From: a virus
Taxonomy: Duplodnaviria; Caudoviricetes
Strand: one strand, 5' to 3'
IMG/VR virus record: IMGVR_UViG_3300028048_000038
Coordinates: 320,001 to 384,000 of that record
Length of the DNA: 64,000 bases
Of this stretch, positions 3,778 to 60,899 are shown in pieces. Within the stretch, counting starts at the first letter, position 1, and every line of letters starts with the position of its first letter. Below the pieces are notes generated by a model. It was not told the origin of the DNA, did not search any database, and was given only the letters and a program-made list of their open reading frames with translations. Both the position numbers and the translations under genes were made by a program.

Positions 3778-4023
3778 TTAAATTGCGTTAGAAGAATCAA
3801 CTAGGTTTTTAATGGCATTAAGGTGCTCATTTATCTGTATAACAATGCTGTTTGGTTCTTGTCCCAATCTATTGCACATTATCATATGGTCTCTAACAAC
3901 TTGAATTGCATCATCAATACTATATCCAATCTCATTGAATAAGTTTGATAAATCATCATTACCATATCCAATTTCTTTGATTAGCTTTTTATATGCTTCC
4001 TCTTTTAAATTAATCGTTTTCAT
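3778..4023 (-). CDS. small putative head-internal protein (LxE-motif family)
   Basis: N-terminus MKTINLKEEAYKKLIKE resembles the MKKVIRLTE family. Confidence 0.55.
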   Translation of the reverse strand: MKTINLKEEAYKKLIKEIGYGNDDLSNLFNEIGYSIDDAIQVVRDHMIMCNRLGQEPNSIVIQINEHLNAIKNLVDSSNAI

Positions 4024-19714: not shown

Positions 19715-20353
19715 ATGAATAATATCTATAAAAGAATAATAAGAGAAGAAATAAACAGATTAATACTTTCTGAAGCAATAGATGTTTCTCCATTATCAAA
19801 ATACATTCAACCATTGCAGAAATGTGTTTCTGACTTAAGAAACATGGGGTATTCGAATAATAAGGAAGTTGATGCATTCTTAAAGGACATATGTGAATAT
19901 ATCCTTCAAGTTATCTTCGGAATTGACAGATGTGTTAAGGCAAATAGTTTGAATGAGGATTTCAGACTATCTGACTATGGTGTGCAGTATCCAGCGGAAT
20001 TGGGTGGCAATCTATGGAATGACTTTGAGAATGGTCTTTATAAGGGTGCTAATTGGGCTAGAAGAAATCTATACAAGAGGGGATATGTTGGCAATGGTGT
20101 AAACGGTAAATCAAATGGTAACACAAACGGCAATACCAATACTAATAACCCCAATAATGTGCCAAGTGTTAAGTTAGCAGATTCACTTAGAAACTTATCA
20201 CAGATATCGCTTAGATATCAAGACCTAACAAATAAACACCCAAATGAAATGTCCCAATATAGCAACATAATATATGATGCATTAGGAAATTATATAAGCA
20301 ACTTAAATAGAGAATATAATCAGATAAAAGCAAACGCCCAAGGAAACCCTTGA
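19715..20353 (+). CDS. putative head-internal protein (LxE-motif family)
   Basis: KRIIREEINRLILSE N-terminus, internal SLNE; ATATTTATA at 19686-19694 upstream. Confidence 0.55.
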   Translation: MNNIYKRIIREEINRLILSEAIDVSPLSKYIQPLQKCVSDLRNMGYSNNKEVDAFLKDICEYILQVIFGIDRCVKANSLNEDFRLSDYGVQYPAELGGNLWNDFENGLYKGANWARRNLYKRGYVGNGVNGKSNGNTNGNTNTNNPNNVPSVKLADSLRNLSQISLRYQDLTNKHPNEMSQYSNIIYDALGNYISNLNREYNQIKANAQGNP

Positions 20354-30756: not shown

Positions 30757-32436
30757 TTATTTTAAAGACTTTCTCCATACATATTTGAATAATCCACAAT
30801 CCCAAATCCTATCATACCCAAGTTCCTTTGCCATTTCGAGTTCTGTCATCGTCATTGGAAAACCATATTTTTTACTTAATATTGACTTGCACATTGACAT
30901 TTTATGTACTCTTTTATATCTATCTATTTTTTCGTTATAATATCTATAATCTGGTTTTGTTATGTTTTCCAATTCAAACCCAAGTTTTGTATAAAGATTA
31001 TTATCACTCCAAGGTGTCCATCTTCTATCAGCAAATGATACAACTGCACTTGGTTCATAACCTCTAATAAAATAAGTAAACATTTTGCTTGCAACGCCTT
31101 GATATATATAATTGTAATCCGTAGCAAAACGCACAAGTTCCCAATCTTTATTTTTTACATTTCCATTCTTAAATGCCATTACAGCAACGAGTTTGTCTTC
31201 ATAAAAGCCTCCAAGATAAACACTACTTTTATAGAACCCTTGTATATGATATTTCTCTAAAAATTCTTTTGCATCGTTGCTTAATATTTCACGAACTTGA
31301 ATTTTACGCCCAGCTATACGTGGTAAATCATAATCTTTTTTAAGTATATGTTTTAATTTAGTTAAAACTACTTCCTTTTTATTGACATATTCATCTTCAA
31401 AAATATGAATTAACCCATAACCTTTTTCATTACATTGCTCTGTCTTTTCTGAATGATATTTATGATTTTTCTTACCAAAAAATTCTGTATGCCACTTTAA
31501 TCCGTCAAACTCAATTCCAATCCTAGCATGTGGAATAAGAATATCAATTTCTCTACCTATTAGAATTTGCCTATTAGCATCATGTTCGACACCAAGACTT
31601 GAAATATATTCACTTATTTCCCTTTCATATGAGGAAATAAATCTACTTTTAGAAACTACAAGATTTCCAAGTTTCATGTCTCTTTTTGCTTGTTCAAGCA
31701 TGTCCTTTGACATAATTGTAACATTTGGATATGCTTTTTTGAACTCAACCATGCCAATATTGTGTACATTTCTAAGATGACTATATGTTATCTTTGGCAT
31801 TTTCTTACCGCATATTGGACATATGACATAGTTATTAGGGTTTTCAAGATGTTTTTGTTTTTCTATTTCTTTTGCTTGTTTTTTGAAGTATACATAATCT
31901 TCTGGGTGATTTTTTAGATGACTTTCCACACTCATTTTATGAACTGACGTTAAATGGTGAGTAAATGCCCCACTTAAATTATTTTCATCGTTTGTTCCCC
32001 AATCGCAATATGGACATTTTACCTTATATTCAATGTCTTTCTCCTCTTTTATATAAAACCATTGTTCCCACCAATAGTTTCCAGTTTCCATATAATATTT
32101 CCTTCTATCATACAATGATGGTATTTCAACATTATAAACATTCTTAATATGTGATGTAAGAAATCCACCATTATTCATATAATCATTATATGCGATACCA
32201 TTTTGTTTATCAACTGCAATATAATGGAAACCATCATGCTTTTTATATTTTTCAATACTATAGTCAGCAATAACAAATGAACTCTTATCTATAGGCTGTT
32301 TACCTTTTTTCCTAAGTTCAACGCCATTTTCAGATAAAATGTTCTTTAATCTTATTTTTCCAATATGATATTTTGCACAAACATCATATATCCCCATTCC
32401 ACCTTGGTAGTCTTTTATAATTTCTTCGTTATTCAT
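30757..32436 (-). mobile_element. free-standing homing-type endonuclease (zinc fingers + PD-(D/E)XK, Hef-like)
   Basis: CPYC..H..H, CPICG..HL..H, EIDILIP..IGIEFDGLKWH..LIHIFEDE, C-terminal SFADRRW..RIWDCG. Has its own host-type promoter at 32456-32490 and lies just downstream of the MCP gene. Confidence 0.75.
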
Positions 32437-32550
32437 ACCTATTATATTTTTATAGCGCAAAGATATATAAAAAAAATTAAAATTCCAAACTTTAATTCAC
32501 TTTTTTTATATAAATATTAGGTACAAACATAAAAGGATTGAGTATGAAAT

Positions 32551-32612: not shown

Positions 32613-34631
32613 TTATCTGAATTCATTAATGCTCCAATGAACAAGTCCATCGACTCTCACGTGGCCATAGTACCTATTATTCACCATCTTCTTCGCATAA
32701 CGTGTCATGATACCCTTTACTGGTGCGAAGTTGAATGGGTTGTACATAGTAGGAGTCAACTGCATTGGCACATATGGTGCATAAATGTAACCTGTGTCAA
32801 GAAGTGACTTACCCTTATGACCGATAATCATTGACCAGTGTGGAGAATATGGGTCACGGTAAACTTGGTAACGTCCACCAAGAGCACCAATCTTCTCAAT
32901 ACCCATGTTGTATTGGTCGCTTTCTGCACTTGCGTCTGAAACGTGGAAGTACTCAAGGTTATCGAACAATGCAGAAATCTCTGAAGATACTACAATGAAG
33001 TTAGCGCCACCACGAAGTGTAGACTTGTGAATCTGTGCAGAAATCTGGTTAATCTTAGTCATCAACTCTTGATTCCAATCCTTCTGAGTGTAGTTGGTTG
33101 AGAATGCAGCCATACGTCTCCAACCATTAACATCCCAACGAGCCTGCCAAGGTGCACCCTTACGCAAGTCACGAAGAATCTCACGGTCAATTTCTGCTGC
33201 AATCTGCTCTGAAAGGATAGCTGTCAACTCAGCCTCTGCGTCAATGTTGTGGAATGCAGAAACGTCTTGTGCAAGCTCTGGAGACCATGTTGCACGAAGT
33301 TTTCTCTCCTCAACTGATACAGTTACTGAATCAAGCTTGAAGCTAACCTCACCGATTTCGGTCTCAAGCTCAAGAGAATCATACTGTGCCCAAGCAATCT
33401 TGAAGAGAGCCTTCAAAGCATCCTTAGTTGCTTGTGGGTCATCTGGAGTGATTGCTGCATCAAGAGCTGCTGCGTCAACACCAACATAACCATCGATTGT
33501 ACCTGCTTGCTGAACTACTGGTTTAGCGAGGTCAAGTTCGATATACATCTTACCTTCTGCATCGCAAGCTGCACCGTACTCTACGATACCCTTACCATAC
33601 TTCTGAGTAACAACTCTGAATGGAACAGACTCGAACTTACGGAAAGCTGCGGTCTGAACGCTCTCTGAGCCAGGAACGGTTGCTGCTGCAATTTCCTTCT
33701 GAGTGATAACCTTAAGAGAAGCAAGGAATCCTTCAGTGTCCATTTCGTTTCCATCAGGACCAGTCAACTTACTTGCGTTGAATGAAGAGAAACCATCAAT
33801 CTCAAGGATGACGTTACGGATAGTACCATCGAATCCACTCTTGAAGTACTGATTAAGGTTGTCAGCACCGAATGGGCGAACACCACTAGGAGCCAAGAAT
33901 ACTGGAATAGCCTCACCAACCTTAATAGTTACCTTACCCTTTGAGTTGTCATACAAGAAGTCGTTGTAGAACAAGTCATACAAACTCTTCTGGAAGTACT
34001 GAGTTACCTCAGGACCAACTCTACGGATAGCAGTTGGGTTAAGACCTGCTGCCTCTGCTGCTGCTTTAGCTGCATCGAAGGTTGCATAAGTAGTCTCATC
34101 GCTAAGAACTGGAATATACCATGCATCTTGAAGCTCATTGATTGTCTCATCTGGGAGATAGTATCTTGGCTCAACACGACCTTCCTTATTACGGTTTACA
34201 CGGTCATAGCCCATAAGTCCCTTATGACGACCAGTTGTACCATCGATGATATCACCTGGTTCTGCTTGTGCATCTGCTGGAACTTCCCACTCTCTCTCTG
34301 AAGTAACAGGGAGGATGAAGAACAACTTACCAACAGGAAGGTTCATAGCTTGAACTGATACGATGTCATTAGCAAGAAGCTTGCTGAACACACGTCTAAT
34401 AATAGGGAAAACAACGGTCTCAAAAGAACCACTGTTATCAGAAGCAGTAGCCTCGTAAATCAAGTGCTTTGCCTCATTCTCATACAATGTAGCAACATTC
34501 TCCTTGATACCCTCTGGAAGACCCTCAGTGAAACCGAGATTGTCCCAACGGTTCTGAATGCTCTCACGTATCTGTTTTTGTGCGTTGTACTCAATATTTC
34601 CAACTACACCACTTGATAGAAATTCTTTCAT
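32613..34631 (-). CDS. major capsid protein (T4 gp23-like)
   Basis: PIIRRVF..LLANDIVSVQAM..PVG, RKLRATWSPELAQD..AFHNIDAEAELT..EIDREI, YAPYVP, GIMTRYA. Confidence 0.96.
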   Translation of the reverse strand: MKEFLSSGVVGNIEYNAQKQIRESIQNRWDNLGFTEGLPEGIKENVATLYENEAKHLIYEATASDNSGSFETVVFPIIRRVFSKLLANDIVSVQAMNLPVGKLFFILPVTSEREWEVPADAQAEPGDIIDGTTGRHKGLMGYDRVNRNKEGRVEPRYYLPDETINELQDAWYIPVLSDETTYATFDAAKAAAEAAGLNPTAIRRVGPEVTQYFQKSLYDLFYNDFLYDNSKGKVTIKVGEAIPVFLAPSGVRPFGADNLNQYFKSGFDGTIRNVILEIDGFSSFNASKLTGPDGNEMDTEGFLASLKVITQKEIAAATVPGSESVQTAAFRKFESVPFRVVTQKYGKGIVEYGAACDAEGKMYIELDLAKPVVQQAGTIDGYVGVDAAALDAAITPDDPQATKDALKALFKIAWAQYDSLELETEIGEVSFKLDSVTVSVEERKLRATWSPELAQDVSAFHNIDAEAELTAILSEQIAAEIDREILRDLRKGAPWQARWDVNGWRRMAAFSTNYTQKDWNQELMTKINQISAQIHKSTLRGGANFIVVSSEISALFDNLEYFHVSDASAESDQYNMGIEKIGALGGRYQVYRDPYSPHWSMIIGHKGKSLLDTGYIYAPYVPMQLTPTMYNPFNFAPVKGIMTRYAKKMVNNRYYGHVRVDGLVHWSINEFR

Positions 34632-34671: not shown

Positions 34672-34680
34672 TATAAATAT
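34672..34680 (-). promoter_or_regulatory. putative late promoter motif (MCP)
   Basis: Sense-strand ATATTTATA about 41 nt upstream of the ATG. Confidence 0.65.
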
Positions 34681-34702: not shown

Positions 34703-36181
34703 TTATCTCATCATTCTGTGCATTAAATCAAGAGAATCTAACAAGTCTTTTGACTTATAGATAGGTGTCTCGTTGATTTTCTGTGAACCCTCAACTGTAA
34801 GACTCTTCTCCTCAGTGATGTTCATTTTGTTGGTTTTCTGAAGTTCACGGCTAATAGTTTCATAAAGTGCTTTTGATGACTCGATGGTCTTACCTTCATT
34901 CTTGAATCTATTAATGATTTCCTTCTTCTCATCTTGAGAAGTTGTGTTCTCAGAAACCAACTTAATAATCTGTGCAAGATTGTGGTTAGTTACAGATACC
35001 TTCTTCAACTGCTCCATAAGGTCAGTCAATGTAGCCTTAAGCTCTTTGTTTTCTTCAAGAACAGTATTTGCCCTCTTAATGAAGCTCTCATTAGTAGGGT
35101 TGCCATCGTATTCACCAGCGGTTGAAACGTGATGTTGGTTCATTGGAGAATTCTTCTTTGCCTTAATAGGGTTATGAGATTTTGTTCCCATCATTCTACC
35201 ATGAGCACCCATTCTACCACCGCACTCTGCTGCTGATTCCTCAAGGTTTTCCTCTTCTTCAAGTTGCTTGCCCTTTTCAGCGTTGAATGGTTTATCTGCC
35301 TTATTTTTCTTACTTGGGTATCCAGACCAAGGCTTTGAGTCACCCTTTGGTACACCTGCATCCCAATCGTTTACATTTTTGCCTGGCTCTGACATACCTG
35401 GATTTGTCATTACATCCTTCTTCTGATAATTGTCAGTGTAGCCTACGTTTGAATCATACTCTAGTACAAGTTCAAACATTCTCTCTGTTGATTCATTCAT
35501 ATCATCCATGTTATTTTCAAAATCATCTTCTGCACTGTCATCAGTAATTACTTCATCGTCACTTGGTTCAGATGCAGCAACACCAGCTGCCTCACCCTCA
35601 TCGTCAAGCTTGATTAGGTACTCAGCTCCAGTCTCATTGTCTTGAATATTCACATTTCCATTGTCATCTTTATGTACAAGGATTTGGTCATCATTCTTCA
35701 TTAATTTGTAAACCTTTACGATTTCCTCGTCTTCCGCATTTGTAAAGTCATACTCATCGTCTGATACCTTATATTTATCAAACTCTGCCCATTCATCGCC
35801 TCCTTCGCCTTCAACAGCTCCGTCATCAGTTGGTTCACCCTCTACAGCAGCATCATCAATAACTGAATCGCCACCTTCAAGTTCTCCACCTTCTACATCA
35901 CCACCTTCAGCGTCCATACCAGCGTCTGCGTCTGCTTGACCATCGTCAACCACATCGCTAGATTTTGCATCGTTTGTAATATCAGAACTAGTATCTTCCA
36001 CTTCACCCTCTTCGTAGTCCTTGTCATCGTCCTCAGACAATAACTTGGCATATGTATCACGTACAGTCTCACTCAAGAGAGCTTTAACTGCACTCTCCGT
36101 ATTTTCCTTCAAAGAATTTGCGAGTGTGTTGTAATCCAATAAAGATTCTCTAACTACTTTGCTTCTAATATTTTTGCTCAT
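34703..36181 (-). CDS. prohead core/scaffold protein
   Basis: Highly acidic with a coiled-coil C-terminus and many (L/I/V)xE sites; immediately upstream of MCP. Confidence 0.75.
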   Translation of the reverse strand: MSKNIRSKVVRESLLDYNTLANSLKENTESAVKALLSETVRDTYAKLLSEDDDKDYEEGEVEDTSSDITNDAKSSDVVDDGQADADAGMDAEGGDVEGGELEGGDSVIDDAAVEGEPTDDGAVEGEGGDEWAEFDKYKVSDDEYDFTNAEDEEIVKVYKLMKNDDQILVHKDDNGNVNIQDNETGAEYLIKLDDEGEAAGVAASEPSDDEVITDDSAEDDFENNMDDMNESTERMFELVLEYDSNVGYTDNYQKKDVMTNPGMSEPGKNVNDWDAGVPKGDSKPWSGYPSKKNKADKPFNAEKGKQLEEEENLEESAAECGGRMGAHGRMMGTKSHNPIKAKKNSPMNQHHVSTAGEYDGNPTNESFIKRANTVLEENKELKATLTDLMEQLKKVSVTNHNLAQIIKLVSENTTSQDEKKEIINRFKNEGKTIESSKALYETISRELQKTNKMNITEEKSLTVEGSQKINETPIYKSKDLLDSLDLMHRMMR

Positions 36182-36353
36182 TTAGAAAATAGATTTAATA
36201 CATTATTTTAATTATAAATATACCAAAAATACCAAAAAAATTCTATATACCCCTAAAAATAATGGAAATATAGATATTTTACTATTTGGTTTTATTGACT
36301 AATATATAAATATTTAGAAAAAGACAAATATTTATTAATAAAAAATATTAGTG

Positions 36354-37055
36354 ATGAAAAAAGCTGAATTAGAGATAATAAAGGAAGGTAAGACTGGACA
36401 TGGTATCCTTATCGAGAATGATGGATACATATCATTAGACTTTGGCAACAATAAACAGTTAAAGGAAGATATTAATAATGGTGGGTGGAATGTACCAAAT
36501 CCATTTATTGTGGATTGTATTCTGCAAAAATTTGACACTAAAAACGCAAATGGTAGAATATACCCAGAACATGTCCTAAAAAGGGAAGTTGAGAAATACC
36601 AAAAAATGGTAGCTGAAAAGATGGCTTTAGGGGAACTTAATCATCCTGCTGAAAGTACAATTGACCTTGGAAGAATTTCCCATAACATTGTTGAAATGCA
36701 TTGGGAAGGAAAAACTTTGGTTGGTAAGATAGAATTAAACGTTACTGAAGGCTTTAGAAAATATGGGATAGTATCGACTTGTGGAGACCATGCAGCACAA
36801 TTGCTTCTAATGGGATTCCGTATAGGGGTATCTTCAAGGGGTGTTGGTTCGGTTGAACAACGCCTAGGACAATACTATGTTGGTGATGATTTTGAGTTAA
36901 TAAGTGTCGATATTGTGTCAAGTCCTTCAACTCCTGGAGCTTATATTGGAAGTCCAGAATATCTACAACAATTCGTTGAAAATAACGAAACAAATAATTC
37001 AAAACCTTCTTTAAACGAAAAGATTTTAAAGATTAAAGAAGTACTTTCCTCGTAA
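36354..37055 (+). CDS. prohead core protease (T4 gp21-like)
   Basis: NANGRIYP, ALGELNHP (His), RISHNI, GVSSRGVGS (Ser), DIVSSPSTPGA. Confidence 0.93.
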   Translation: MKKAELEIIKEGKTGHGILIENDGYISLDFGNNKQLKEDINNGGWNVPNPFIVDCILQKFDTKNANGRIYPEHVLKREVEKYQKMVAEKMALGELNHPAESTIDLGRISHNIVEMHWEGKTLVGKIELNVTEGFRKYGIVSTCGDHAAQLLLMGFRIGVSSRGVGSVEQRLGQYYVGDDFELISVDIVSSPSTPGAYIGSPEYLQQFVENNETNNSKPSLNEKILKIKEVLSS

Positions 37056-37095: not shown

Positions 37096-38109
37096 ATGGG
37101 TAAAAAGAAAACAACAAATGAATTTATAAAGGAAGCCACATCCAAGCATAATGGAAAATATGACTATTCTTTAGTAGAATATAAAGGAAATAAAACAAAT
37201 GTTAGCATCATTTGTCCAATTCACGGAGAATTTCAACAAACACCAGACAGGCACTTACATAGTGGTGGATGTTTAAAATGCGCAGCAGAAAAAAGAGGGC
37301 TTAAACGTAGAATGACATTTGATGAATTCTTAGAAAAAGCTAAAAAGATACATGGAGAAAAATACTCTTATGTTAAGGAAACATTCTCTAAAGGCGGTGC
37401 TGAAACTACAATAATATGTCCTAAACATGGGGAGTTCCAACAAACACCAGATAGTCATTTACAAGGACATGGTTGTCCAAAATGTAAAAGTGAAAAACTT
37501 GCTAAACTAAGAAAAGAAGAATTTGGAGACTTTATAGAAAAAGCTAAGAAGGTTCATGGTGATAAATATGATTATTCAAAAGTTGAATATATACGTTCAA
37601 ATAAGAATGTTTATATAACTTGTCCAATACACGGTGTTTTTCCACAAACGCCAAATAGTCATTTAATGGGCGCAGGTTGCCCTTTTTGTAAAAATAGTCA
37701 CTTAGAAGAAAAAATAGCTAAAATTCTAGATAAATTAGGCGTTAATTACGTAAGAGAACAAAGATATGAATGGCTTTTTAACGACAAAAAAATGTCTTTA
37801 GACTTTTATCTACCTAAGTACAATATTGCGATAGAATGCCAAGGAGACCAACATGTTTTTTATAGAGATACATATTACAATGTCGAAGGTAAATTTGAAA
37901 AAAGAGTTGCTCTAGATAAACTTAAAAATAAGTTATGCAAAGAACATAACATACCAATAATTTACATTTTTAACAAACTTCATTCCTCTAGCAGATTAAA
38001 TGAACTGTTTGAACACATGTATGACGATGCAATATTTATTGAAGACATAAATAACGATAATAACACTTTATTAAAAGCAATAAATGAAAAAAGTAATAAG
38101 ATTAACTGA
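37096..38109 (+). mobile_element. free-standing homing-type endonuclease (DUF723-like zinc-ribbon repeats + PD-(D/E)XK)
   Basis: Three repeats of KY.YS..Y..I.CP.HG.F.QTP..HL.G.GCP.C, then LDFYLP..IAIECQG.QH. Promoter TATATTTGCA at 37084-37093. Confidence 0.75.
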
Positions 38110-38482
38110 AGGTGACTTACATGGTTTGATAACAGAATCAGTTACTAGAATTATAAATGAGATTGGTGTTTATCCAAACGGACAAACTGACCTATTCTTC
38201 GACCAAGACCAAGTTGATGAATATCGTTCATCTGCAAATGGTAGAGCTATTGAAGCTCTATTAAGGGCTGAAAGGGAATGCGGATGGAGGCATATGAATT
38301 CAAAGGATATGGGGCGTTATACAGAGTATATCTGCTATCCTATGAGTGATTATACATCAAAAGATAGAAAAACATTCATGGAGAGAATCAAGGCATATGC
38401 TCCAATAAAAGACAATATAGAATTCATCTGCTTGAGAAACCCATACATCAAGAGCTTTACAGTAAGAATTAAGAATATTTAA
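38084..38482 (+). CDS. putative head-internal protein (LTE-motif family)
   Basis: MKKVIRLTEGDLHGLITESVTRIINE; late motif at 38032-38040. Confidence 0.65.
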   Translation: MKKVIRLTEGDLHGLITESVTRIINEIGVYPNGQTDLFFDQDQVDEYRSSANGRAIEALLRAERECGWRHMNSKDMGRYTEYICYPMSDYTSKDRKTFMERIKAYAPIKDNIEFICLRNPYIKSFTVRIKNI

Positions 38483-38494
38483 AAATAAAGGAAA

Positions 38495-38740
38495 ATGAAT
38501 AAAACAATTATAAAACTTACTGAATCTGATTTGCATAGAATTGTAGAAGATTCTGTTAATCGTGTCGTAAAGGATTATATGCAAAATGATTTTAATAGAT
38601 ATAATGAAGAACTTGAAATATACAACAAAGAACTTCAGCTTTTCAAAGAAACTGGAAATGTAAGTAGAGAATATCTTGAAGAACTTTTAAGGAATCAAAA
38701 AAACATGTTGAATATGCTTATTAGTTGTTGTTATAAATAA
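38495..38740 (+). CDS. putative head-internal protein (LTE-motif family)
   Basis: MNKTIIKLTESDLHRIVEDSVNRVV. Confidence 0.65.
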   Translation: MNKTIIKLTESDLHRIVEDSVNRVVKDYMQNDFNRYNEELEIYNKELQLFKETGNVSREYLEELLRNQKNMLNMLISCCYK

Positions 38741-38745
38741 TACAT

Positions 38746-38782
38746 AAAAAAGCGAGGCTAAATTTAGTCTCGCTTTCTTTTT
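38746..38782. terminator. bidirectional intrinsic terminator
   Basis: AAAAAAGCGAGGCTAAATTTAGTCTCGCTTTCTTTT between convergent genes. Confidence 0.7.
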
Positions 38783-38805
38783 GCCAAAACACCATCCAAA
38801 AAAAA

Positions 38806-39135
38806 TTATCCCATTGGTGGAAAATCATCGTAATTGGCTTCAAGGTCAATTCTATCTTGTGCCCATTCATCCTCATCGCCATTCACAATATCATCTTGGT
38901 TAATGTCATTATGAGTTTTGTCAAGAGGTTCACCAGTTATGCCAAAATCATGGTCATTTGTCATACCGTCAAATGGTGTGGAATGTTCCTCACCCTCGAA
39001 TGGTTCATAATTATTCAATACATTGTCGTTCTCACGCCAATCATTTCCCAATATATCTTCCCTCAATATCTTATCAACTGAATTCTTTATGATATTTCTC
39101 AATTCTGATTCTGTTAGTCTTATTACCTTTTTCAT
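38806..39135 (-). CDS. putative head-internal protein (LTE-motif family)
   Basis: MKKVIRLTESELRNIIKNSVDKILRE; late motif at 39152-39160. Confidence 0.65.
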   Translation of the reverse strand: MKKVIRLTESELRNIIKNSVDKILREDILGNDWRENDNVLNNYEPFEGEEHSTPFDGMTNDHDFGITGEPLDKTHNDINQDDIVNGDEDEWAQDRIDLEANYDDFPPMG

Positions 39136-39170
39136 AATATCTAATTTTTATAATAAATATTTCTAAGAGG

Positions 39171-39605
39171 TTATTTCTTCTTATTTATCGTGAAATCATT
39201 TTCCTTAAAAGAATATACTAGGTTATTGGCAATTGTACTAACCTTTCTCTTAAACAAATCATTTAAGTCTTGTAATTGCTTTTTATTCTTCTCATTTTGA
39301 CGCAAATAGAAGTCGAATGAGAGGAATTTTTTCTCCCTTGGGGCAAGTCCATCAATATTGATATCAAAGTCCAATATAAAGCGATTATCGAAGTTTATCC
39401 CATCAATTAGGAATGACTTTATATTTCTCTTCATATTCTTCTCAATGTTGTCAATAACATCGGCATAATTCATTTCCCTTTGGGGTGACACCCAACACTT
39501 TCCACTCACGTATACAACTTGTGGGTTATTTCTGTTTACCGTGCCATATTTCAAGGAAATATGATTGCACACATCTAACTTATATTCCTTGTTTAGTCGT
39601 TTCAT
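39171..39605 (-). CDS. hypothetical protein (144 aa)
   Basis: Clean ORF in the head region. Confidence 0.65.
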   Translation of the reverse strand: MKRLNKEYKLDVCNHISLKYGTVNRNNPQVVYVSGKCWVSPQREMNYADVIDNIEKNMKRNIKSFLIDGINFDNRFILDFDINIDGLAPREKKFLSFDFYLRQNEKNKKQLQDLNDLFKRKVSTIANNLVYSFKENDFTINKKK

Positions 39606-42084: not shown

Positions 42085-44130
42085 TTATTTGTCATCAACA
42101 AACTTACCAAGTTCATCAATCATCTTATCAAATTCTTCATTAATCAACAATGAATCCTCATCATAAACATCTGCACGCTTGTACTCAGTTTCTCTATGCT
42201 TCTCATTGCGTTCCTTCAAAGTTGAAAGATACTTATTGAACATTTCATCAAGCTTATTGTTCTTCTGCTCATTTATCAGTGGCTTGTTTGAATATCTAGA
42301 CTCCATTGGCGCATTTGGGTCACTTCCCATATCGGCTGTTGGCATTGAACCCTCTTGGGCTGGTGCCGTTCCACTACCATCATCCATTGGTGCTCCCATA
42401 TCTCCACCCATATCAGGTGCGTCTCCCATTGGAGGAGGTGGTGCTCCCATTCCACCGCCCATTCCTCCAGAGCCACCATCCATGCCACTTTGGCCGCCTT
42501 GCATATCATCCATGTATTCTGCTCCTGGTTCACCATAGATTCTATCAACGGTATCGAAGATACCAGTCTTCTTGATAATCTGTGTGGTTTTCTCAAGTTC
42601 AGCGGCAATACCCTTTTCAAGACGTATCTCTTCAAGGTTCTCCTTAATCTCCTTTTCAGACCATTTCATAATCTGCTTAAGAGCACGAGTTTGTGACATA
42701 ACTGGAAGACCATTACCTGGGTCTGATACTGCGTCTCTAACAGCATCAATCTTCTTCTGCATGTTCTCAATCTCCAATCCTTCAGCTTGTGTTGATGGAT
42801 TATTCATCGTCAATGAGAAATTGGTCAACTCATCATTGAAACCTAACAAGAACAAGTGGATTGAAGCCACTTTTGTAAGTTCCATCAAGAATGCTTGCTG
42901 TATTCTGTTTACTGTTCTAGTGAAACGAATATCCATAAGTGCAAGATTCTTACCGTCACCAACACCTTCCTCGAAATTCAAGAATGACTTAGGTATTCTA
43001 AGTGAAGTCAACACCTTATTCTGCACAAACTTGATATCATCAAGAGCTGTCATGTTCTGACCAGCTGAAAGCGTATCAATTGGAGTTGGTGCATTCTCAT
43101 CACGTACTGGAATAAATATATCATTGTCAATTCCAAGAATATTCTTACGAAGGTCAACTTGACCAGTTACTGGGTCAATAATCGGTGTTCTCTTAAACTC
43201 ATTGGCAATTCTCTCTACATATGCTTCAACATCAGCATCATCAATAGCTCCAACGAAAATCTTATACACACGTCTTTCAACTGAACGCTCAAGACGATAG
43301 ATAAGCATCATATCTTCCATCAATGAAAGCATCCTCCAATGCCTACGTGCGCCATTAAGGTAACTCACACCATAAGGTAAATACAATGAGTTTGTGAGCA
43401 ATCTAAAATGAGCAATCTGCCAATCTCTGAATGGTACTTGTGAATTATTATCATCCAACCAAATAAACTGAGTTGATAGGTCTGCATCATCCTTTGTTAC
43501 ACCGTTAACAGCGATTGATGAGCCAGCACCATAAGGATTTTGAACCCCATTTTCAATTCTCTCCATATTGAATACTGGAAGCTGTTTCCAACCCTTAACA
43601 CCATTTTTATGGTCAATATCCAATAACATAAATTGATTACCATACTTACACATAGCACGGATAATCATCTGACCAGTTAATTGGATGTTAAGTCTATTCA
43701 CGAACAAATCCTCAAGAATGCTCTTGATTCTATCTGACTTGGAATAAACATTAACAACCATTCCCTTGTCATTAACAATCGTACTTTCCTCAGAAACAAT
43801 ATCAAGTGCTGCACTAATCTCTGGAAATGCATCCATCAAATCACCATCACGATACATTAACTTGACATTGTTCAAACCACTATATGCGGTTACAGCTAGG
43901 TTAACATTAGTCTTAACCCATCTATCCTTCAAGTACTTATCTTGCTGAAGCTCTAGTTTCTTCTGTAAATAGTCATCCCTATCTGTTGTCCTATATATTA
44001 CATTCTTACCATCACTAGGAGTCAAATCATATGAATTAATATGTGGCTCTGCTATTGATGTAGATGAAGAAGTCCAACGTCCAGTTATGGCTTTATCTAG
44101 GGCTTGAAAAACTGTATTCTTTTTTGCCAT
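42085..44130 (-). CDS. portal protein (T4 gp20-like)
   Basis: PEISAALDIVSEE, IAHFRL, LMEDMMLIYRLERSVERRVYKI.VG, IDTL..G.N..DDIKF, D.RF.R.V.RIQ. Confidence 0.93.
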   Translation of the reverse strand: MAKKNTVFQALDKAITGRWTSSSTSIAEPHINSYDLTPSDGKNVIYRTTDRDDYLQKKLELQQDKYLKDRWVKTNVNLAVTAYSGLNNVKLMYRDGDLMDAFPEISAALDIVSEESTIVNDKGMVVNVYSKSDRIKSILEDLFVNRLNIQLTGQMIIRAMCKYGNQFMLLDIDHKNGVKGWKQLPVFNMERIENGVQNPYGAGSSIAVNGVTKDDADLSTQFIWLDDNNSQVPFRDWQIAHFRLLTNSLYLPYGVSYLNGARRHWRMLSLMEDMMLIYRLERSVERRVYKIFVGAIDDADVEAYVERIANEFKRTPIIDPVTGQVDLRKNILGIDNDIFIPVRDENAPTPIDTLSAGQNMTALDDIKFVQNKVLTSLRIPKSFLNFEEGVGDGKNLALMDIRFTRTVNRIQQAFLMELTKVASIHLFLLGFNDELTNFSLTMNNPSTQAEGLEIENMQKKIDAVRDAVSDPGNGLPVMSQTRALKQIMKWSEKEIKENLEEIRLEKGIAAELEKTTQIIKKTGIFDTVDRIYGEPGAEYMDDMQGGQSGMDGGSGGMGGGMGAPPPPMGDAPDMGGDMGAPMDDGSGTAPAQEGSMPTADMGSDPNAPMESRYSNKPLINEQKNNKLDEMFNKYLSTLKERNEKHRETEYKRADVYDEDSLLINEEFDKMIDELGKFVDDK

Positions 44131-44178
44131 TTTTATAAAAAATAATAAATTTATTTATAAATATAAATATTTGTTACT

Positions 44179-46056
44179 TTACTTAACTCCTCCAAATAGC
44201 CACATACAACTTCCACCTATATTACTATATTTCTCAATACGTTTCTTTGAACTGTAGAAAGGTAAACCAGTCTTAGGTGCAATAGTCTCTCCACTCTTCA
44301 TCTTTGGTTTATTCATACTGATTGCACGATTCATCATATACGCATTAAGAATAGCCTTATCCTTATTGGCTGTATTTTGTATCCTATTAACAGTGTACTG
44401 CATAACGAACAATCCCATAGCCAATGCTGTAAGAGTATCGTCATGAGCACCGTCTTGGTGGTCAATTCTAGCTGTCTCACCCTTGAATATCCAAGTCTCA
44501 AGTTCGTTGATTACCCTAGCTGAACGAATCTTGAACTCATTGTTACGGACAAGACCTGCGAAGTTTGCAAGTACTGGATAACGGTTTCCTTGGAAGTGGA
44601 AACCTGGAAGTTTATCCGTATATCCATCATAGTTCTTTGTTGACCTCTGAACCATATATGTCTTTTGGTTTGAATCCTCATAATACATGTTTTTATAACC
44701 CATGTTTATAAGTGTTAATATGGCAGCATCTCCTTGACCACCAGTACAGTCAACGACAATGAATGCATCATTATACATTGTTGCATATTGATAACATAAT
44801 GCTCCAATATCATCACCCAATTTCTTTCCAACATATTCTCCAACTTGCTCGATAATCGGTAGTCCATTCTCGTCCCTACCATCCATATCAATAATCTCAA
44901 TGGCTGTTCTATCGGCAGATACGCCTCTTGATGGGTCACATGCAAGAATATAACGGTGTCCCTCAATAGGACGTTTCCAAAACCAAGTCTCTTCAACTAA
45001 TGGGTCATGAAAATCATCAAGTGGCTCTCTTGTGTTAAGCTTCTCTTGCATTTCAATGAACTCTGGAGCAACAACGTTGTCGGCAGAACCCATGAACGAT
45101 ACATCAAGCTCTTGGGCAATCTTCATTGAGTCATTGTTGAACTGCTTGCACATTTCATCATACCAAGGCGCTGTAGGTTTCCAACCATTGTGTTCAAGTC
45201 TAGCCCATCTTTCCTCATCATACTTCACTCCTCCCTCACTGTCGATTATTGGGTCTTGGTCAAACTCCCATTCACCAGTATCTTCATTTTTCTTCTTCCA
45301 CACAAGATACTTGTTGAATCTTGGGTCTTGATACCAACGGAACTGTACTGCCACGAAGTTATTCTCATGGCTTAATGCTTGCCTATATGTGTTATAGTAA
45401 AGCTCGTCTCTACCGTTAGGGGTAGATACCATAACAGTCTTAGAATTAGGGTTAGATGCCATAGTTGCAGCAGCAGTGGTAAACGCAGCCACACCTTCCT
45501 CAATAAACGCTGCCTCGTCAAGAATCAAGACGGATACAGCAGAGATACCACGAGAAGCATTAGGACCAGATGCACGTGCAATGATTCTACAACCATTGAA
45601 CAACTTCAGCTCACCTTTTGCATCCTTTAAAAAAATTGATTTTAGATTTTTTTCTGAATTAGGGTCAACTGAGAAATATTCATTACCCCAATACCATCTA
45701 GGAACTTGCTCAAGGAAATCTCTTACCTTTATGATAATTTCTTGCGCTTGTTCAAGCTTATTGGCAATACACAAAACAGTCTCAGGTGCCTCTGCTGATG
45801 CAAATGCACACTGGGCTGCTGCCCAAGCACTTGATAGTGTTGTAATACCACACTGTCTTGGCTTAATTGCAACAACGTTTCTGTTTTCCGCAAGAGCCTT
45901 GAGGAACGCTCTCTGACGTGGAAAACAGTGGAATTGTGTTTTCTTACCCTTAGTTGCATTAAAGGTAGAGAAATACTTTTCTATAAATGTAATTCTTGAT
46001 TTGTCGGCATAGCATTGAGCATAATCGCTTGCCATTTGTTGTCTATCGTAAATCAT
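44179..46056 (-). CDS. terminase large subunit (T4 gp17-like)
   Basis: KPRQCGITT, LILDEAAFI (Walker B), VSTPNG, AQEL..SF, ACDPSRG, HDDTLTAL nuclease motifs. Confidence 0.95.
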   Translation of the reverse strand: MIYDRQQMASDYAQCYADKSRITFIEKYFSTFNATKGKKTQFHCFPRQRAFLKALAENRNVVAIKPRQCGITTLSSAWAAAQCAFASAEAPETVLCIANKLEQAQEIIIKVRDFLEQVPRWYWGNEYFSVDPNSEKNLKSIFLKDAKGELKLFNGCRIIARASGPNASRGISAVSVLILDEAAFIEEGVAAFTTAAATMASNPNSKTVMVSTPNGRDELYYNTYRQALSHENNFVAVQFRWYQDPRFNKYLVWKKKNEDTGEWEFDQDPIIDSEGGVKYDEERWARLEHNGWKPTAPWYDEMCKQFNNDSMKIAQELDVSFMGSADNVVAPEFIEMQEKLNTREPLDDFHDPLVEETWFWKRPIEGHRYILACDPSRGVSADRTAIEIIDMDGRDENGLPIIEQVGEYVGKKLGDDIGALCYQYATMYNDAFIVVDCTGGQGDAAILTLINMGYKNMYYEDSNQKTYMVQRSTKNYDGYTDKLPGFHFQGNRYPVLANFAGLVRNNEFKIRSARVINELETWIFKGETARIDHQDGAHDDTLTALAMGLFVMQYTVNRIQNTANKDKAILNAYMMNRAISMNKPKMKSGETIAPKTGLPFYSSKKRIEKYSNIGGSCMWLFGGVK

Positions 46057-46129: not shown

Positions 46130-46166
46130 AAAAAAAGAGCAACCACAACTGTGATTACTCTTTTTG
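46130..46166 (-). terminator. intrinsic terminator
   Basis: AAAAAAGAGCAACCAC..GTGATTACTCTTTTT hairpin. Confidence 0.5.
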
Positions 46167-47831
46167 TCTTAGCATTGCCATATAGCACATATCATCATGA
46201 TATACATAGATGTTTGGGTTTTGAGCTAGTTTAGCATAAACCTTTGCTATATGTTCCTTATTTATTCTTCTTCCCTCTCCGCTATAGATTGCACCGAACT
46301 CATAGATAAGCTTTGTGTATATCTTTGGTGCTAAACCTAAACGTTGGATTCCTTCATTCAATATAATGTGTATCTGAAGCATTGGTACTCTCTCCTCCTC
46401 ACTGATTCTAATCTTAACGCTCTGTGCCATAAGGAGAATCATCTGTCTTGGCATTATCTCGCCATTGATAGTTACAATCAAGTCCTCAGTGACACCATTA
46501 ACGTTTCCCTCAAGGAAATCAATGTTATCTACGGTTGCAGATTGTACCAATTGTTGATAATATTCAATAGGCTTCTGAGGTTCTGCCTCATATTGCCCCA
46601 TTACATCTGCATCCTCGCCCTCTTCAATTACATCACCCTCTGATTCATCTGAATCTATCTCATATCCATTTGTCTCAGCTCCAGTGAAATAAGAATCCTT
46701 AATCAATGATTTATCAATATTCTTCGCATTTATCCTATTGGTAAACTGTTGATAACCATTATCATATTCAGCATTCTTCATTAATTGGTCGATTATCTCA
46801 TTTCCCCTATTGGTATTTGAAAGGATTTCCTTCACGCTTGCGCTGAACTCTTCATTTGGCTGCTTAATGAGGCTTGTAAACATGTATGGTATCATATTGG
46901 TGTCTTCCACCCTACCAAATATCTTGTTCCATAGCGTAACACCAAATCTCAAGTCCCAAGGCTCTGCAAGCACAAAATCAGCCTTTTTAACGACAAACAT
47001 CGCCTTATCCTTATTACTTGGTAGCCCATGTGCTGAAAACAGCTCAAACAAGCCTTTAATGGTCTCTTGGAGCAACAATGGGAATATAATACCTTGTGCC
47101 TTTATTGTGGTTCTCTCACCAACACCACCAAGATGCACTTCAACATATGAGCCTTGCATTGGTTTTTCATCACTCATTTCCTCTTTCTTGGTAAAAAGAA
47201 GATAATCATTGATTGCGATAATCTTCATATACAATGGAATGAGGTCTCTATTAATTCTATCAATATCCTCTATATACAAGCCCAATATTTTTGAATAAGT
47301 ATATGCTGCGCCTTGAATTAATGAATCAATGAAACGTCTCTTTTCAACAGCCTTATCAAACAACTCAATATCATTCACATCATCGAATGTGTATGTAATC
47401 TTATCATCCGATTCTGGTTTCAACCTTATTGCATTTTTGAACTTTATCTTATCTACAAGCTTGCACTTTAGGTTAAGCATTTCCTCTGGGATTGCAAACA
47501 ACCTATTAACGGCATTCTCGCAAATCTTCTCAAGTGTATCTCTAATTGGAAGCTCCATATCTCTACACATCTTGAGAGCATTGCTTAACTCACTCATAAG
47601 ATAGTCTTCATCAAGGCTTTCCAAGCCCAATTTCTCTATTGCATCACACACTTCACCGAATCTAACCTTTAGCAAAGTATAGTCAAAAGGATAGTCACCA
47701 CCACTAGGGAACATACTATTGTCTCCCAATGATGTCTCATGTGCCTTAACGCTTTTGAATAGAAATTGAGGCAAAAGCCTCTTATTCAAAACATTGGCAA
47801 TTGTATTTTCTTTTAGATATATCTTCTTCAT
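46155..47831 (-). CDS. head-associated protein with C-terminal GNAT-like domain
   Basis: MKKIYLKE N-terminus; C-terminal IHIILNEGIQRLGLAPKIY..IYSG resembles the acetyl-CoA motif QxxGxA. Confidence 0.5.
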   Translation of the reverse strand: MKKIYLKENTIANVLNKRLLPQFLFKSVKAHETSLGDNSMFPSGGDYPFDYTLLKVRFGEVCDAIEKLGLESLDEDYLMSELSNALKMCRDMELPIRDTLEKICENAVNRLFAIPEEMLNLKCKLVDKIKFKNAIRLKPESDDKITYTFDDVNDIELFDKAVEKRRFIDSLIQGAAYTYSKILGLYIEDIDRINRDLIPLYMKIIAINDYLLFTKKEEMSDEKPMQGSYVEVHLGGVGERTTIKAQGIIFPLLLQETIKGLFELFSAHGLPSNKDKAMFVVKKADFVLAEPWDLRFGVTLWNKIFGRVEDTNMIPYMFTSLIKQPNEEFSASVKEILSNTNRGNEIIDQLMKNAEYDNGYQQFTNRINAKNIDKSLIKDSYFTGAETNGYEIDSDESEGDVIEEGEDADVMGQYEAEPQKPIEYYQQLVQSATVDNIDFLEGNVNGVTEDLIVTINGEIMPRQMILLMAQSVKIRISEEERVPMLQIHIILNEGIQRLGLAPKIYTKLIYEFGAIYSGEGRRINKEHIAKVYAKLAQNPNIYVYHDDMCYMAMLRQKE

Positions 47832-59948: not shown

Positions 59949-60521
59949 ATGCGTATAGATTTATGTAACAAGTTGGTTGATAACAATTTAACCAAAGAAG
60001 ACTTGTTAGAAAGGGTTGAAATAAGGAAGACCTCTACAGAAGATTTAGTCCAAATTTGCAAGACTTTGGCTAAAGCATTCGACTTATCATGTGATGCAGA
60101 GGCATATGGGCAACTTTGTCAATCCAAGGCATTATTGGAAGACTCAGTTAAGCTAGTTGATAAGGAAAGTGGGGAAATTTATAGTTTGCTTATGTTCTGT
60201 GAGTGCCCAATAAAGTTTGGCTCTCCAATCTCATTCGTTGAGAAGGAGCTTTCAGAATATTTGGATAGATATGTTCAAGTCAATGGGCATTCATTCATTA
60301 TTGATGAGAGACTTCGTGGGACAAATCTCGATAAACAGATGTTGTACTTCAACATCAAGTTCTTGAGAGATAATTATGACTTTATTTGGATGGGTGTCGA
60401 GAAAAGTTTACGAACTTTACCATATTGGCATAGACTAGGATTTGTAGATGTATTTGAGATACCAGAAGCTGTGTTTTGTCTTATACCATTAAGCAAAAAG
60501 ATGATTAAGGAATATTTATAA
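59949..60521 (+). CDS. GNAT-family acetyltransferase
   Basis: FIIDERLRGTNLDKQML and YWHRLGF motifs. Confidence 0.6.
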   Translation: MRIDLCNKLVDNNLTKEDLLERVEIRKTSTEDLVQICKTLAKAFDLSCDAEAYGQLCQSKALLEDSVKLVDKESGEIYSLLMFCECPIKFGSPISFVEKELSEYLDRYVQVNGHSFIIDERLRGTNLDKQMLYFNIKFLRDNYDFIWMGVEKSLRTLPYWHRLGFVDVFEIPEAVFCLIPLSKKMIKEYL

Positions 60522-60539
60522 TAATAAACAGAATTTATT

Positions 60540-60899
60540 ATGAAAAAATTCATATTATCTGAAAATGGTTTAGAGAGACTTAAACAGAATATAATAAAGG
60601 AAGCATGTTATGAAGACCATGTGAGTCATGGTTCTAAGTTCCTTACCGCAAACTATAAGGCAATTCCTTATGACAATGGTAAAGGTAAGATTGTTGGCGT
60701 GTTCATGAAATTGGATAATGGACAGCCTACAAAGATGACATGTTGGAAACAAGATGTGCTTGATGCACTAGATAAAGAATTTTATAATAGGATAACAAAC
60801 GATACCGAAAGAAAAGGCTTCATAAGCCAATTGCTAGACGATTGGTATAATGGTGGAATTAGTAAATATGGAAGTCTGACAAAGTATAATTTTAACTAA
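60540..60899 (+). CDS. putative head-internal protein (LxE-motif family)
   Basis: MKKFILSENGLERLKQNIIKE; late motif at 60512-60520. Confidence 0.55.
   Translation: MKKFILSENGLERLKQNIIKEACYEDHVSHGSKFLTANYKAIPYDNGKGKIVGVFMKLDNGQPTKMTCWKQDVLDALDKEFYNRITNDTERKGFISQLLDDWYNGGISKYGSLTKYNFN

Follow-up and report, generated by a model that had tools for sequence, protein, structure and literature searches.

The window analyzed here is a 64,000-nucleotide stretch of DNA comprising positions 320001-384000 of one 409,537-bp virus record, which has 35% G+C and is rated complete. The phage is uncultured, measures ~410 kb and infects gut Bacteroidales. A T4-like head module was found within the 64-kb window, and three small genes located between the protease and portal genes of this module, with starts at 38084 (+), 38495 (+) and 39135 (-), share a 26-amino-acid (aa) N-terminus (MKKIIRLTESDLHxIVKESVxRILxE) and diverge fully afterwards. 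We denote the shared N-terminus as the leader and the remainder of each protein as its cargo. A previous sequence-only reading of this stretch had proposed that such starts form a portable tag that loads diverse effectors into the prohead, where a gp21-like protease would free them.

Leader gene 1 (38084..38482, +) encodes 132 aa with the leader at aa 1-26 (38084-38161), ending in IINE followed by IG. In leader gene 2 (38495..38740, +; 81 aa) the leader occupies aa 2-27 and ends in VVKD, and in leader gene 3 (38806..39135, -; 109 aa) it spans 39058-39135 and ends in ILRE, followed by a very acidic cargo (isoelectric point (pI) 4.1) that looks disordered from its composition. All three match a leader hidden Markov model (HMM), with E values of 5.7e-17, 2.2e-16 and 1.1e-15, respectively. 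This HMM has 28 positions, was built from simple pattern matches, and was run on all 2,306 open reading frames (ORFs) of at least 40 aa in the whole 409,537-bp genome. It identified 13 copies of the leader in 12 ORFs (E = 3e-7 to 7e-19), and the next match has an E value of 0.36. The 12 ORFs comprise the three window genes, eight small genes at 244-300 kb and one gene near 21 kb encoding a 711-aa protein. Twelve of the 13 copies end in Glu; the copy in the 38495 gene is the only one with Asp in place of the terminal Glu.

The motif lies away from the ORF start in three of the 12 ORFs: it follows a DUF3008 domain in one, is found at aa 274 of a 484-aa ORF in another, and is located 39 aa into the third, where it stands directly behind a Met. 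The DUF3008 fusion (L006, genome 280820-281296, -), with the domain at aa 4-57, the leader copy at aa 58-83 and no intervening Met, is the sole clear case in this genome of a leader behind a known domain. The 711-aa protein (L009, genome 20535-22670, -) begins with a weakly Dps/ferritin-like region (DUF5856, phrog_858), contains two leader copies internally and ends in a basic tail. Its database homologues of 339-676 aa have the same layout, and it may be a polyprotein.

Shared starts of this kind could arise by chance or composition, or could mark a translation or mRNA signal at the nucleotide level. The genome is AT-rich with many MKK starts, and several of the looser examples listed in the sequence-only reading are not significant. 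Chance is opposed by the E values down to 7e-19, by the clean gap to 0.36, and by a profile search of 1.84 billion cluster representatives, which returned 6,769 clusters at E <=1e-3 and 538 at E <=1e-10. The invariant residues are encoded degenerately, with four codons each at Leu7 and Leu12, both TCN and AGY codons for Ser, and AGA and CGT at Arg22. Because synonymous codons vary freely at invariant residues, the conserved entity is the peptide and not a nucleic-acid signal, and selection acts on the leader at the protein level. We regard chance or a nucleotide-level signal as extremely improbable overall, and for the core leader family chance and a DNA-level signal are both refuted.

Anatomy and spread of the leader

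A logo computed from 151 distinct copies reads M-K-K-I-I-R-L-T-E-S-D-L-H-R-I-V-K-E-S-V-K-R-I-L-K-E, with positions 4-13 partly imposed by the search pattern and positions 15-26 free of it. Its information content is 3.7 bits at position 26 (Glu, 91%) and 0.3-0.6 bits from position 27 on. Among the 150 best database representatives, Glu occupies position 26 in 258 of 274 copies (94%). The boundary of conservation is Glu26 within [IV][LI]-x-E (positions 23-26). The leader holds two (L/I)-x-E motifs, the invariant L7-T8-E9 and the [LI]24-x-E26 at the conservation edge. In an AlphaFold2 model of the 38084 protein, the leader forms a low-confidence helix at aa 9-26 (predicted local distance difference test (pLDDT) <50) that is not packed against the cargo, which itself reaches a pLDDT of 83-94. 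An 'ESK' ahead of internal copies was considered as a further element and rejected, as it is present in few proteins and is no general feature.

The sequence-only reading had called for a scan of this and related genomes with a leader HMM, and the scan recovers the family in both. Four complete relatives of 349-413 kb hold 10-20 leader matches each. In IMG/VR the motif occurs on contigs of 4 to 413 kb; the five mid-sized contigs tested are fragments, 33-65% complete. Across 75 related viral loci we identified 176 copies in 169 stop-to-stop frames, with a Met at the motif start in 164 of the 169 frames and this Met being the first of the frame in 146. Many of the top database matches contain 2-3 leader copies separated by D/N/E/G/Y-rich linkers, a multi-copy bias that arises partly because scores are summed over copies. 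One pair of database proteins, P0037 and P0056, differs in that an extra module together with a leader-like helix sits precisely at a joint in one of them, a difference that fits a polyprotein and equally fits recombination at repeats.

A search of 185,579 prokaryote species (one genome each) found 13 matching loci, all in metagenome-assembled genomes (MAGs) or other metagenome-assembled records, most of them labelled Bacteroidaceae, Prevotella or Bacteroidales and a few carrying other labels. One of the records carrying the leader (L100, ONBK01000001.1, 408,014 bp) was deposited as 'uncultured Bacteroidales bacterium RUG153'; it matches the clade in size, is evidently one of its phages and looks to have been binned as a bacterial MAG. 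A tblastn search of the leader against 50,697 GenBank phage records yielded three weak matches (E = 0.4-2), with no T4-like phage among them. As matches are confined to metagenome-assembled records and no GenBank phage has a convincing copy, the leader is phage-only and specific to one clade of huge Bacteroidales phages of animal guts. Pfam and PHROGs searches with all 12 family proteins gave no match to the leader, only DUF3008 and the weak DUF5856/phrog_858. The ESM Atlas returned unnamed clusters only, with scores <0.8. A literature search for the leader motif strings found nothing relevant, and the Jug-phage paper makes no mention of N-terminal or paralogous tags.

A conserved peptide on variable proteins could also be a recognition or functional module unrelated to the capsid, such as a host-target-binding helix, a strand plus helix resembling half of a ribbon-helix-helix (RHH) domain, or a recognition sequence for a modifying enzyme, spread by recombination at the level of coding sequence. 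The K-I-I-R-L-T-E-S-D-L start resembles what we take to be the strand-to-helix start of RHH proteins. Multi-copy proteins gain or lose modules at the repeats, the pattern expected of repeat-mediated recombination, and HNH/DUF723 endonuclease genes, which could mobilise cassettes, abut three of the 11 small leader-family genes in this genome. No RHH or other Pfam family matches the leader (E <=0.1 for window genes, <=0.01 for the others), and the leader profile run against PDB sequences finds designed helical repeats only and no RHH chain. Because nothing is conserved after residue 26, there is no second RHH helix, and an RHH domain is ruled out by this missing helix together with the lack of a Pfam or PDB family match. 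The census of neighbouring genes shows no recurrent enzyme; what recurs are head genes and multi-copy HNH genes, in a locus set that was ranked by similarity to a head-module gene and is therefore skewed to head-module copies. The sole radical S-adenosylmethionine (SAM) gene lies at ~171 kb, at least 73 kb from the small family genes. A leader for a radical-SAM enzyme or a similar modifying enzyme, of the kind found in ribosomally synthesized and post-translationally modified peptides, was rejected, as no modifying enzyme adjoins the tagged genes. We consider a module unrelated to the capsid unlikely.

The genome carries at least nine paralogous genes for HNH/DUF723-type homing endonucleases, including 37096-38109 (+) and 30757-32460 (-) in the window and 268441-269835 and 291587-293062 in genome coordinates. 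One HNH endonuclease ORF shares 26 nt with the start of the 38084 gene, whose late-type motif it contains. These endonuclease genes may be a route for leader-cassette mobility.

Variable cargo and a second, shorter leader

Behind the leader, 144 distinct leader proteins fall into 81 clusters (BLASTP E <1e-5) with a median length of 132 aa and a median pI of 5.5. These clusters, together with the three adjacent window genes, bear out the observation of the sequence-only reading that related N-termini stand on otherwise unrelated proteins on both strands. Within this genome, cargos range from very acidic (pI 4.1) to basic (pI 9.9). A Pfam search of 60 cargo-cluster representatives gave one WG-repeat match and one weak match, with no enzyme or anti-defence domain. 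The cargo of the 38084 protein contains a confidently predicted alpha/beta domain (aa 41-132), for which a Foldseek search of the model against PDB and BFVD returned no match at E <=1e-3. A word-based homologue search with the full 132-aa protein found orthologues only. The label 'diverse effectors' is thus without basis, because the cargo gives neither an informative Pfam domain nor a fold neighbour.

The orthologues of the 38084 protein in sister phages (contigs of 409-417 kb) have cargo that is 65-73% identical, and in them the 26-aa leader is replaced by a 16-aa leader, MKRIVISESAYHRLLE. The short leader ends in L-[LF]-E and precedes the same I/M-G-G-V-Y-P as the long-leader form. At the level of predicted proteins, this comparison shows a leader that is detachable and exchangeable between a long and a short form on one orthologous cargo.

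We built a second HMM for the short leader from the orthologues in other genomes only, and used 1,853 internal-Met windows as a control (best score 7.9 bits). The sequence-only reading had described a wider MKKxIxLxE family that included looser examples in the window, and part of this family survives as a second, shorter leader class. The example at 4023, which starts MKTINLKEE and ends in LIKE followed by IG, reaches only E = 0.8 with the long-leader HMM and scores 22.6 bits with the short-leader HMM. Its gene (3778..4023, -) encodes a ~17-aa variant of the short leader, MKTINLKEEAYKKLIKE, followed by IGYG, and has a close relative in L027. Two further examples score above every control and are weak and suggestive only. 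One is a candidate short-leader gene at 60540..60899 (+), which starts with MKKFILSENGLERLKQNIIKE (11.6 bits), has an orthologue in L025 and is preceded by ATATTTAT, a late-type motif discussed below, at 60512-60519. The other, at 46155..47831 (-), encodes a 558-aa head-module protein with a short-leader-like start, MKKIYLKEN (9.0 bits), and its orthologues begin MKKIYISEN or MRKIYLTES. The examples at 19715 and 52778 are supported by neither the long- nor the short-leader model. On related loci, the short-leader model finds a spectrum of MK-I-x-[IL]-x-E...[LI][LIF]-x-E N-termini, nearly all of them Met-initiated.

The prohead protease, the head module and late-type promoters

The gene at 36351..37055 (+) encodes a prohead serine protease of the T4 gp21 type (Pfam PF03420, Peptidase_S77, E = 4.7e-23; phrog_207, E = 3e-39), in agreement with the gp21-like protease that the sequence-only reading had placed here. 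The window leader genes begin ~1 kb from it. S77 proteases are present in all four complete relatives and in two of five incomplete contigs. In three of four lineages (this genome with its near-twin G006; G008; G009), the protease gene has a leader gene no more than 2 kb away, an arrangement with a chance probability of 10-19% per genome. In the more distant relatives G009 (267060-267536) and G004 (125480-127138), the S77 match falls in a 609-aa frame with two partial S77 matches, which may represent a duplicated or fused protease.

The gene for the gp23-like major capsid protein (MCP; 672 aa) is located at 32613..34631 (-). It matches T4 gp23 in PDB (E = 3e-29) and is ~40% identical to the MCPs of Flavobacterium and Microcystis myoviruses. 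The alignment to T4 gp23 is limited to aa 24-109 and 385-646, and the ~275 residues between them are an insertion. The MCP N-terminus aligns to the gp23 propeptide and contains a candidate maturation site, L-I-Y-E followed by A-T-A-S (aa 57-64), located 12 residues ahead of the conserved mature core, about where T4 gp23 is cut. Nine of ten distinct MCP N-termini from related contigs keep this site as [IL]-x-E followed by A-T, and the tenth is a divergent or truncated ORF. The conservation of this site across the clade argues, indirectly, that the S77 protease keeps the T4 (L/I)-x-E rule. The N-terminus of the protease itself, which contains ELEIIKE followed by G, was rejected as a cut site since the Glu there varies among relatives.

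Between the MCP and the protease lies a gene for an acidic, scaffold-like protein of 492 aa (34703..36181, -), so named for its position and composition. A family search with this protein gave no match. From the same position and composition, the protein is probably a prohead core component and a possible docking partner for the leader. The head module is bounded by the portal protein (42085..44130, -; phrog_213, E = 5e-65) and TerL (44179..46056, -; phrog_2, E = 3e-39). A 144-aa protein encoded at 39171-39605 (-) adjoins leader gene 3 and is part of the conserved head module. It is among the commonest neighbours of leader genes (21 of 75 loci) in the locus set described above.

Two classes of upstream motif were found genome-wide, TTTCGTATCTTTGCA before 82 genes and ATATTTAT(A) before 60 genes. 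TTTCGTATCTTTGCA is an extended form of the Bacteroidota-type TAnnTTTG, a motif class that points to a Bacteroidota host, and the genes it precedes lie mostly at 25-200 kb. ATATTTAT is 10-fold more common than expected and precedes every head gene (MCP, scaffold-like protein, protease, portal and TerL). From these gene sets, the split between the two motifs looks like one between early promoters, used by the host RNA polymerase, and late promoters. Sites of the ATATTTAT type in the window are located at 36328-36335 (+), upstream of the protease; at 36214-36221, upstream of the scaffold-like gene; and at 34673-34680 (-) and 44157-44170 (-). Among the leader genes, ATATTTAT occurs at 38032-38039 for gene 1 and on the minus strand at 39153-39160 for gene 3. 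Five of the 11 small family genes are preceded by ATATTTAT compared with ~10% of all genes (Fisher p = 0.003, for the sequence motif only), and the host-type TAnnTTTGC motif is found before none of the leader-family genes. The claim that several family genes follow this late-type motif is upheld by these counts. Such a late-promoter bias fits structural rather than take-over genes, a further point against a module unrelated to the capsid.

A candidate capsid-targeting propeptide

The best fit to these data, to which we give a probability of about 0.5, is that the 26-aa peptide is a capsid-targeting propeptide in the style of T4, removed by the protease. Late proteins, once synthesized, would be docked by the amphipathic helix of the leader onto the prohead core (the scaffold or the inner shell) as it assembles. 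When the shell has formed, the S77 prohead protease would cleave behind Glu26 in [IV][LI]-x-E, with a possible second cut behind the invariant L-T-E at positions 7-9, and the variable C-terminal part would be released within the head. Proteins with 2-3 leader copies would then be polyproteins cut at each copy. Docking, cleavage, residence in the virion, ejection into the host and any function of the cargo are inferences. Of the proposal in the sequence-only reading, the portable capsid-loading tag is retained on the grounds of its N-terminal position, its modularity, the Glu boundary, the S77 protease with a leader gene close by, the MCP site and the late-type promoters, and the 'diverse effectors' are dropped, as no enzyme or anti-defence Pfam domain appears in the 60 representatives and the 38084 cargo has no fold match.

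In T4, the internal proteins (IPs) are directed to the prohead core by propeptides of 10-19 residues, which gp21 removes (PMC9026906). Residues 8 and 10 of this capsid-targeting sequence (CTS) govern processing; with Asp at the cut position, a protein is still targeted but is not processed (PMC9026906). CTS-like starts are also found on other proteins of T4-related phages, and a review proposes the CTS as a general route by which T4-like phages load varied proteins (PMC9026906). As with the T4 CTS (IPI, IPII, IPIII and Alt, cut by gp21), the leader is a short N-terminal peptide on unrelated, non-conserved small proteins and ends in (L/I)-x-E. The two systems also share a gp21-family S77 protease, a gp23-like MCP with an equivalent site, and genes that here are probably late, to judge from the late-type motif. 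Unlike the T4 peptides, the leader measures 26 aa (or ~16) rather than 10-19 aa, and it is alike by eye in format only, its sequence bearing no resemblance to MKTYQEFIAE. Each genome here has 10-20 tagged genes compared with 3-4 in T4, and many cargos are acidic or disordered where those of T4 are basic. Internal and tandem copies exist here, and the system belongs to a phage with a Bacteroidales host and a 350-413-kb genome that is known from sequence alone. We class the leader as at most an analogue of the T4 CTS rather than a homologue. A further comparison is with the cargo-loading peptides of encapsulins, which are short and portable and address diverse cargo into an HK97-fold shell, but are C-terminal, are not removed by a protease and are unrelated to the leader in sequence.

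In the giant phages phiKZ, 201phi2-1 and SPN3US, internal head proteins lose N-terminal propeptides, in some cases 20-24 residues long, to a gp21-related protease, and long propeptides are cut at several sites (PMC10052503). These are, like the phage studied here, huge myoviruses with a gp21-related protease. Their cleavage rule is A/S/G-x-E, in contrast to the (L/I)-x-E context here, and no propeptide sequence common to unrelated cargo, as seen with the leader, is described for them (PMC10052503).

Several observations weigh against a cleaved targeting propeptide. Nine of the 12 leader-family genes in this genome lie outside the head module, and no leader gene is found within 2 kb of the protease in G007. 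The internal copies (after DUF3008, at aa 274 of the 484-aa ORF, and the two in the 711-aa protein) require the additional assumption of polyproteins. The residue behind Glu26 (P1') is variable, and shuffling shows a weak [LI]xE enrichment in head proteins (z = 1.8-2.6) that does not discriminate. Unlike the basic IPs of T4, the cargo is in many cases acidic or disordered. At 26 aa, the leader is also very strongly conserved, beyond the needs of a 10-aa T4 CTS. Its length and strong conservation hint at an interaction more demanding than a simple address.

In a different explanation, the leader is an uncleaved docking or assembly helix that either oligomerises or tethers variable proteins to a common partner (the capsid, the tail or another complex), with the terminal Glu forming part of the helix. 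The leader is long, strongly conserved and amphipathic, with a helix predicted at aa 9-26, and its conservation is high along all 26 positions rather than at the putative cut site alone. Proteins with several copies could bind multivalently, the copy in the 38495 gene ends in Asp, and most leader copies are found away from the head module. Against an uncleaved helix, conservation stops exactly at a Glu that is 91-94% invariant and stands in a T4 protease context, and the N-terminal position is near-universal. The 16-aa leader, although unrelated, likewise ends in L-x-E followed by I/M-G on orthologous cargo, a shared ending that is unexpected for a plain helix. We find an uncleaved helix unlikely. 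Even if the leader is not cleaved, it would be a very large undescribed phage peptide module, for which no Pfam model, solved structure or literature mention was found.

We also put forward, more tentatively and at somewhat under even odds, that a clade of Bacteroidales gut phages with genomes of 350-413 kb may run an expanded plug-in cargo system. In this proposal, the 26-aa helix and its 16-aa sister form would address 10-20 fast-evolving proteins per genome to the prohead and the S77 protease would release them, and the thousands of matching metagenome clusters, polyproteins included, would belong to an undescribed family of targeting peptides. Should the leader prove a true propeptide, a single short profile would pick out the proteins that an abundant, uncultured clade of huge gut and rumen phages packages and probably injects. 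At 10-20 proteins per genome and >6,700 public clusters, such a list would be a pointer to the fastest-evolving host-interaction genes of these phages. A true propeptide would also carry the principle of the T4 CTS over to a distant lineage whose tag differs from that of T4 and is much longer, and would provide a second natural means of loading capsids with foreign proteins.

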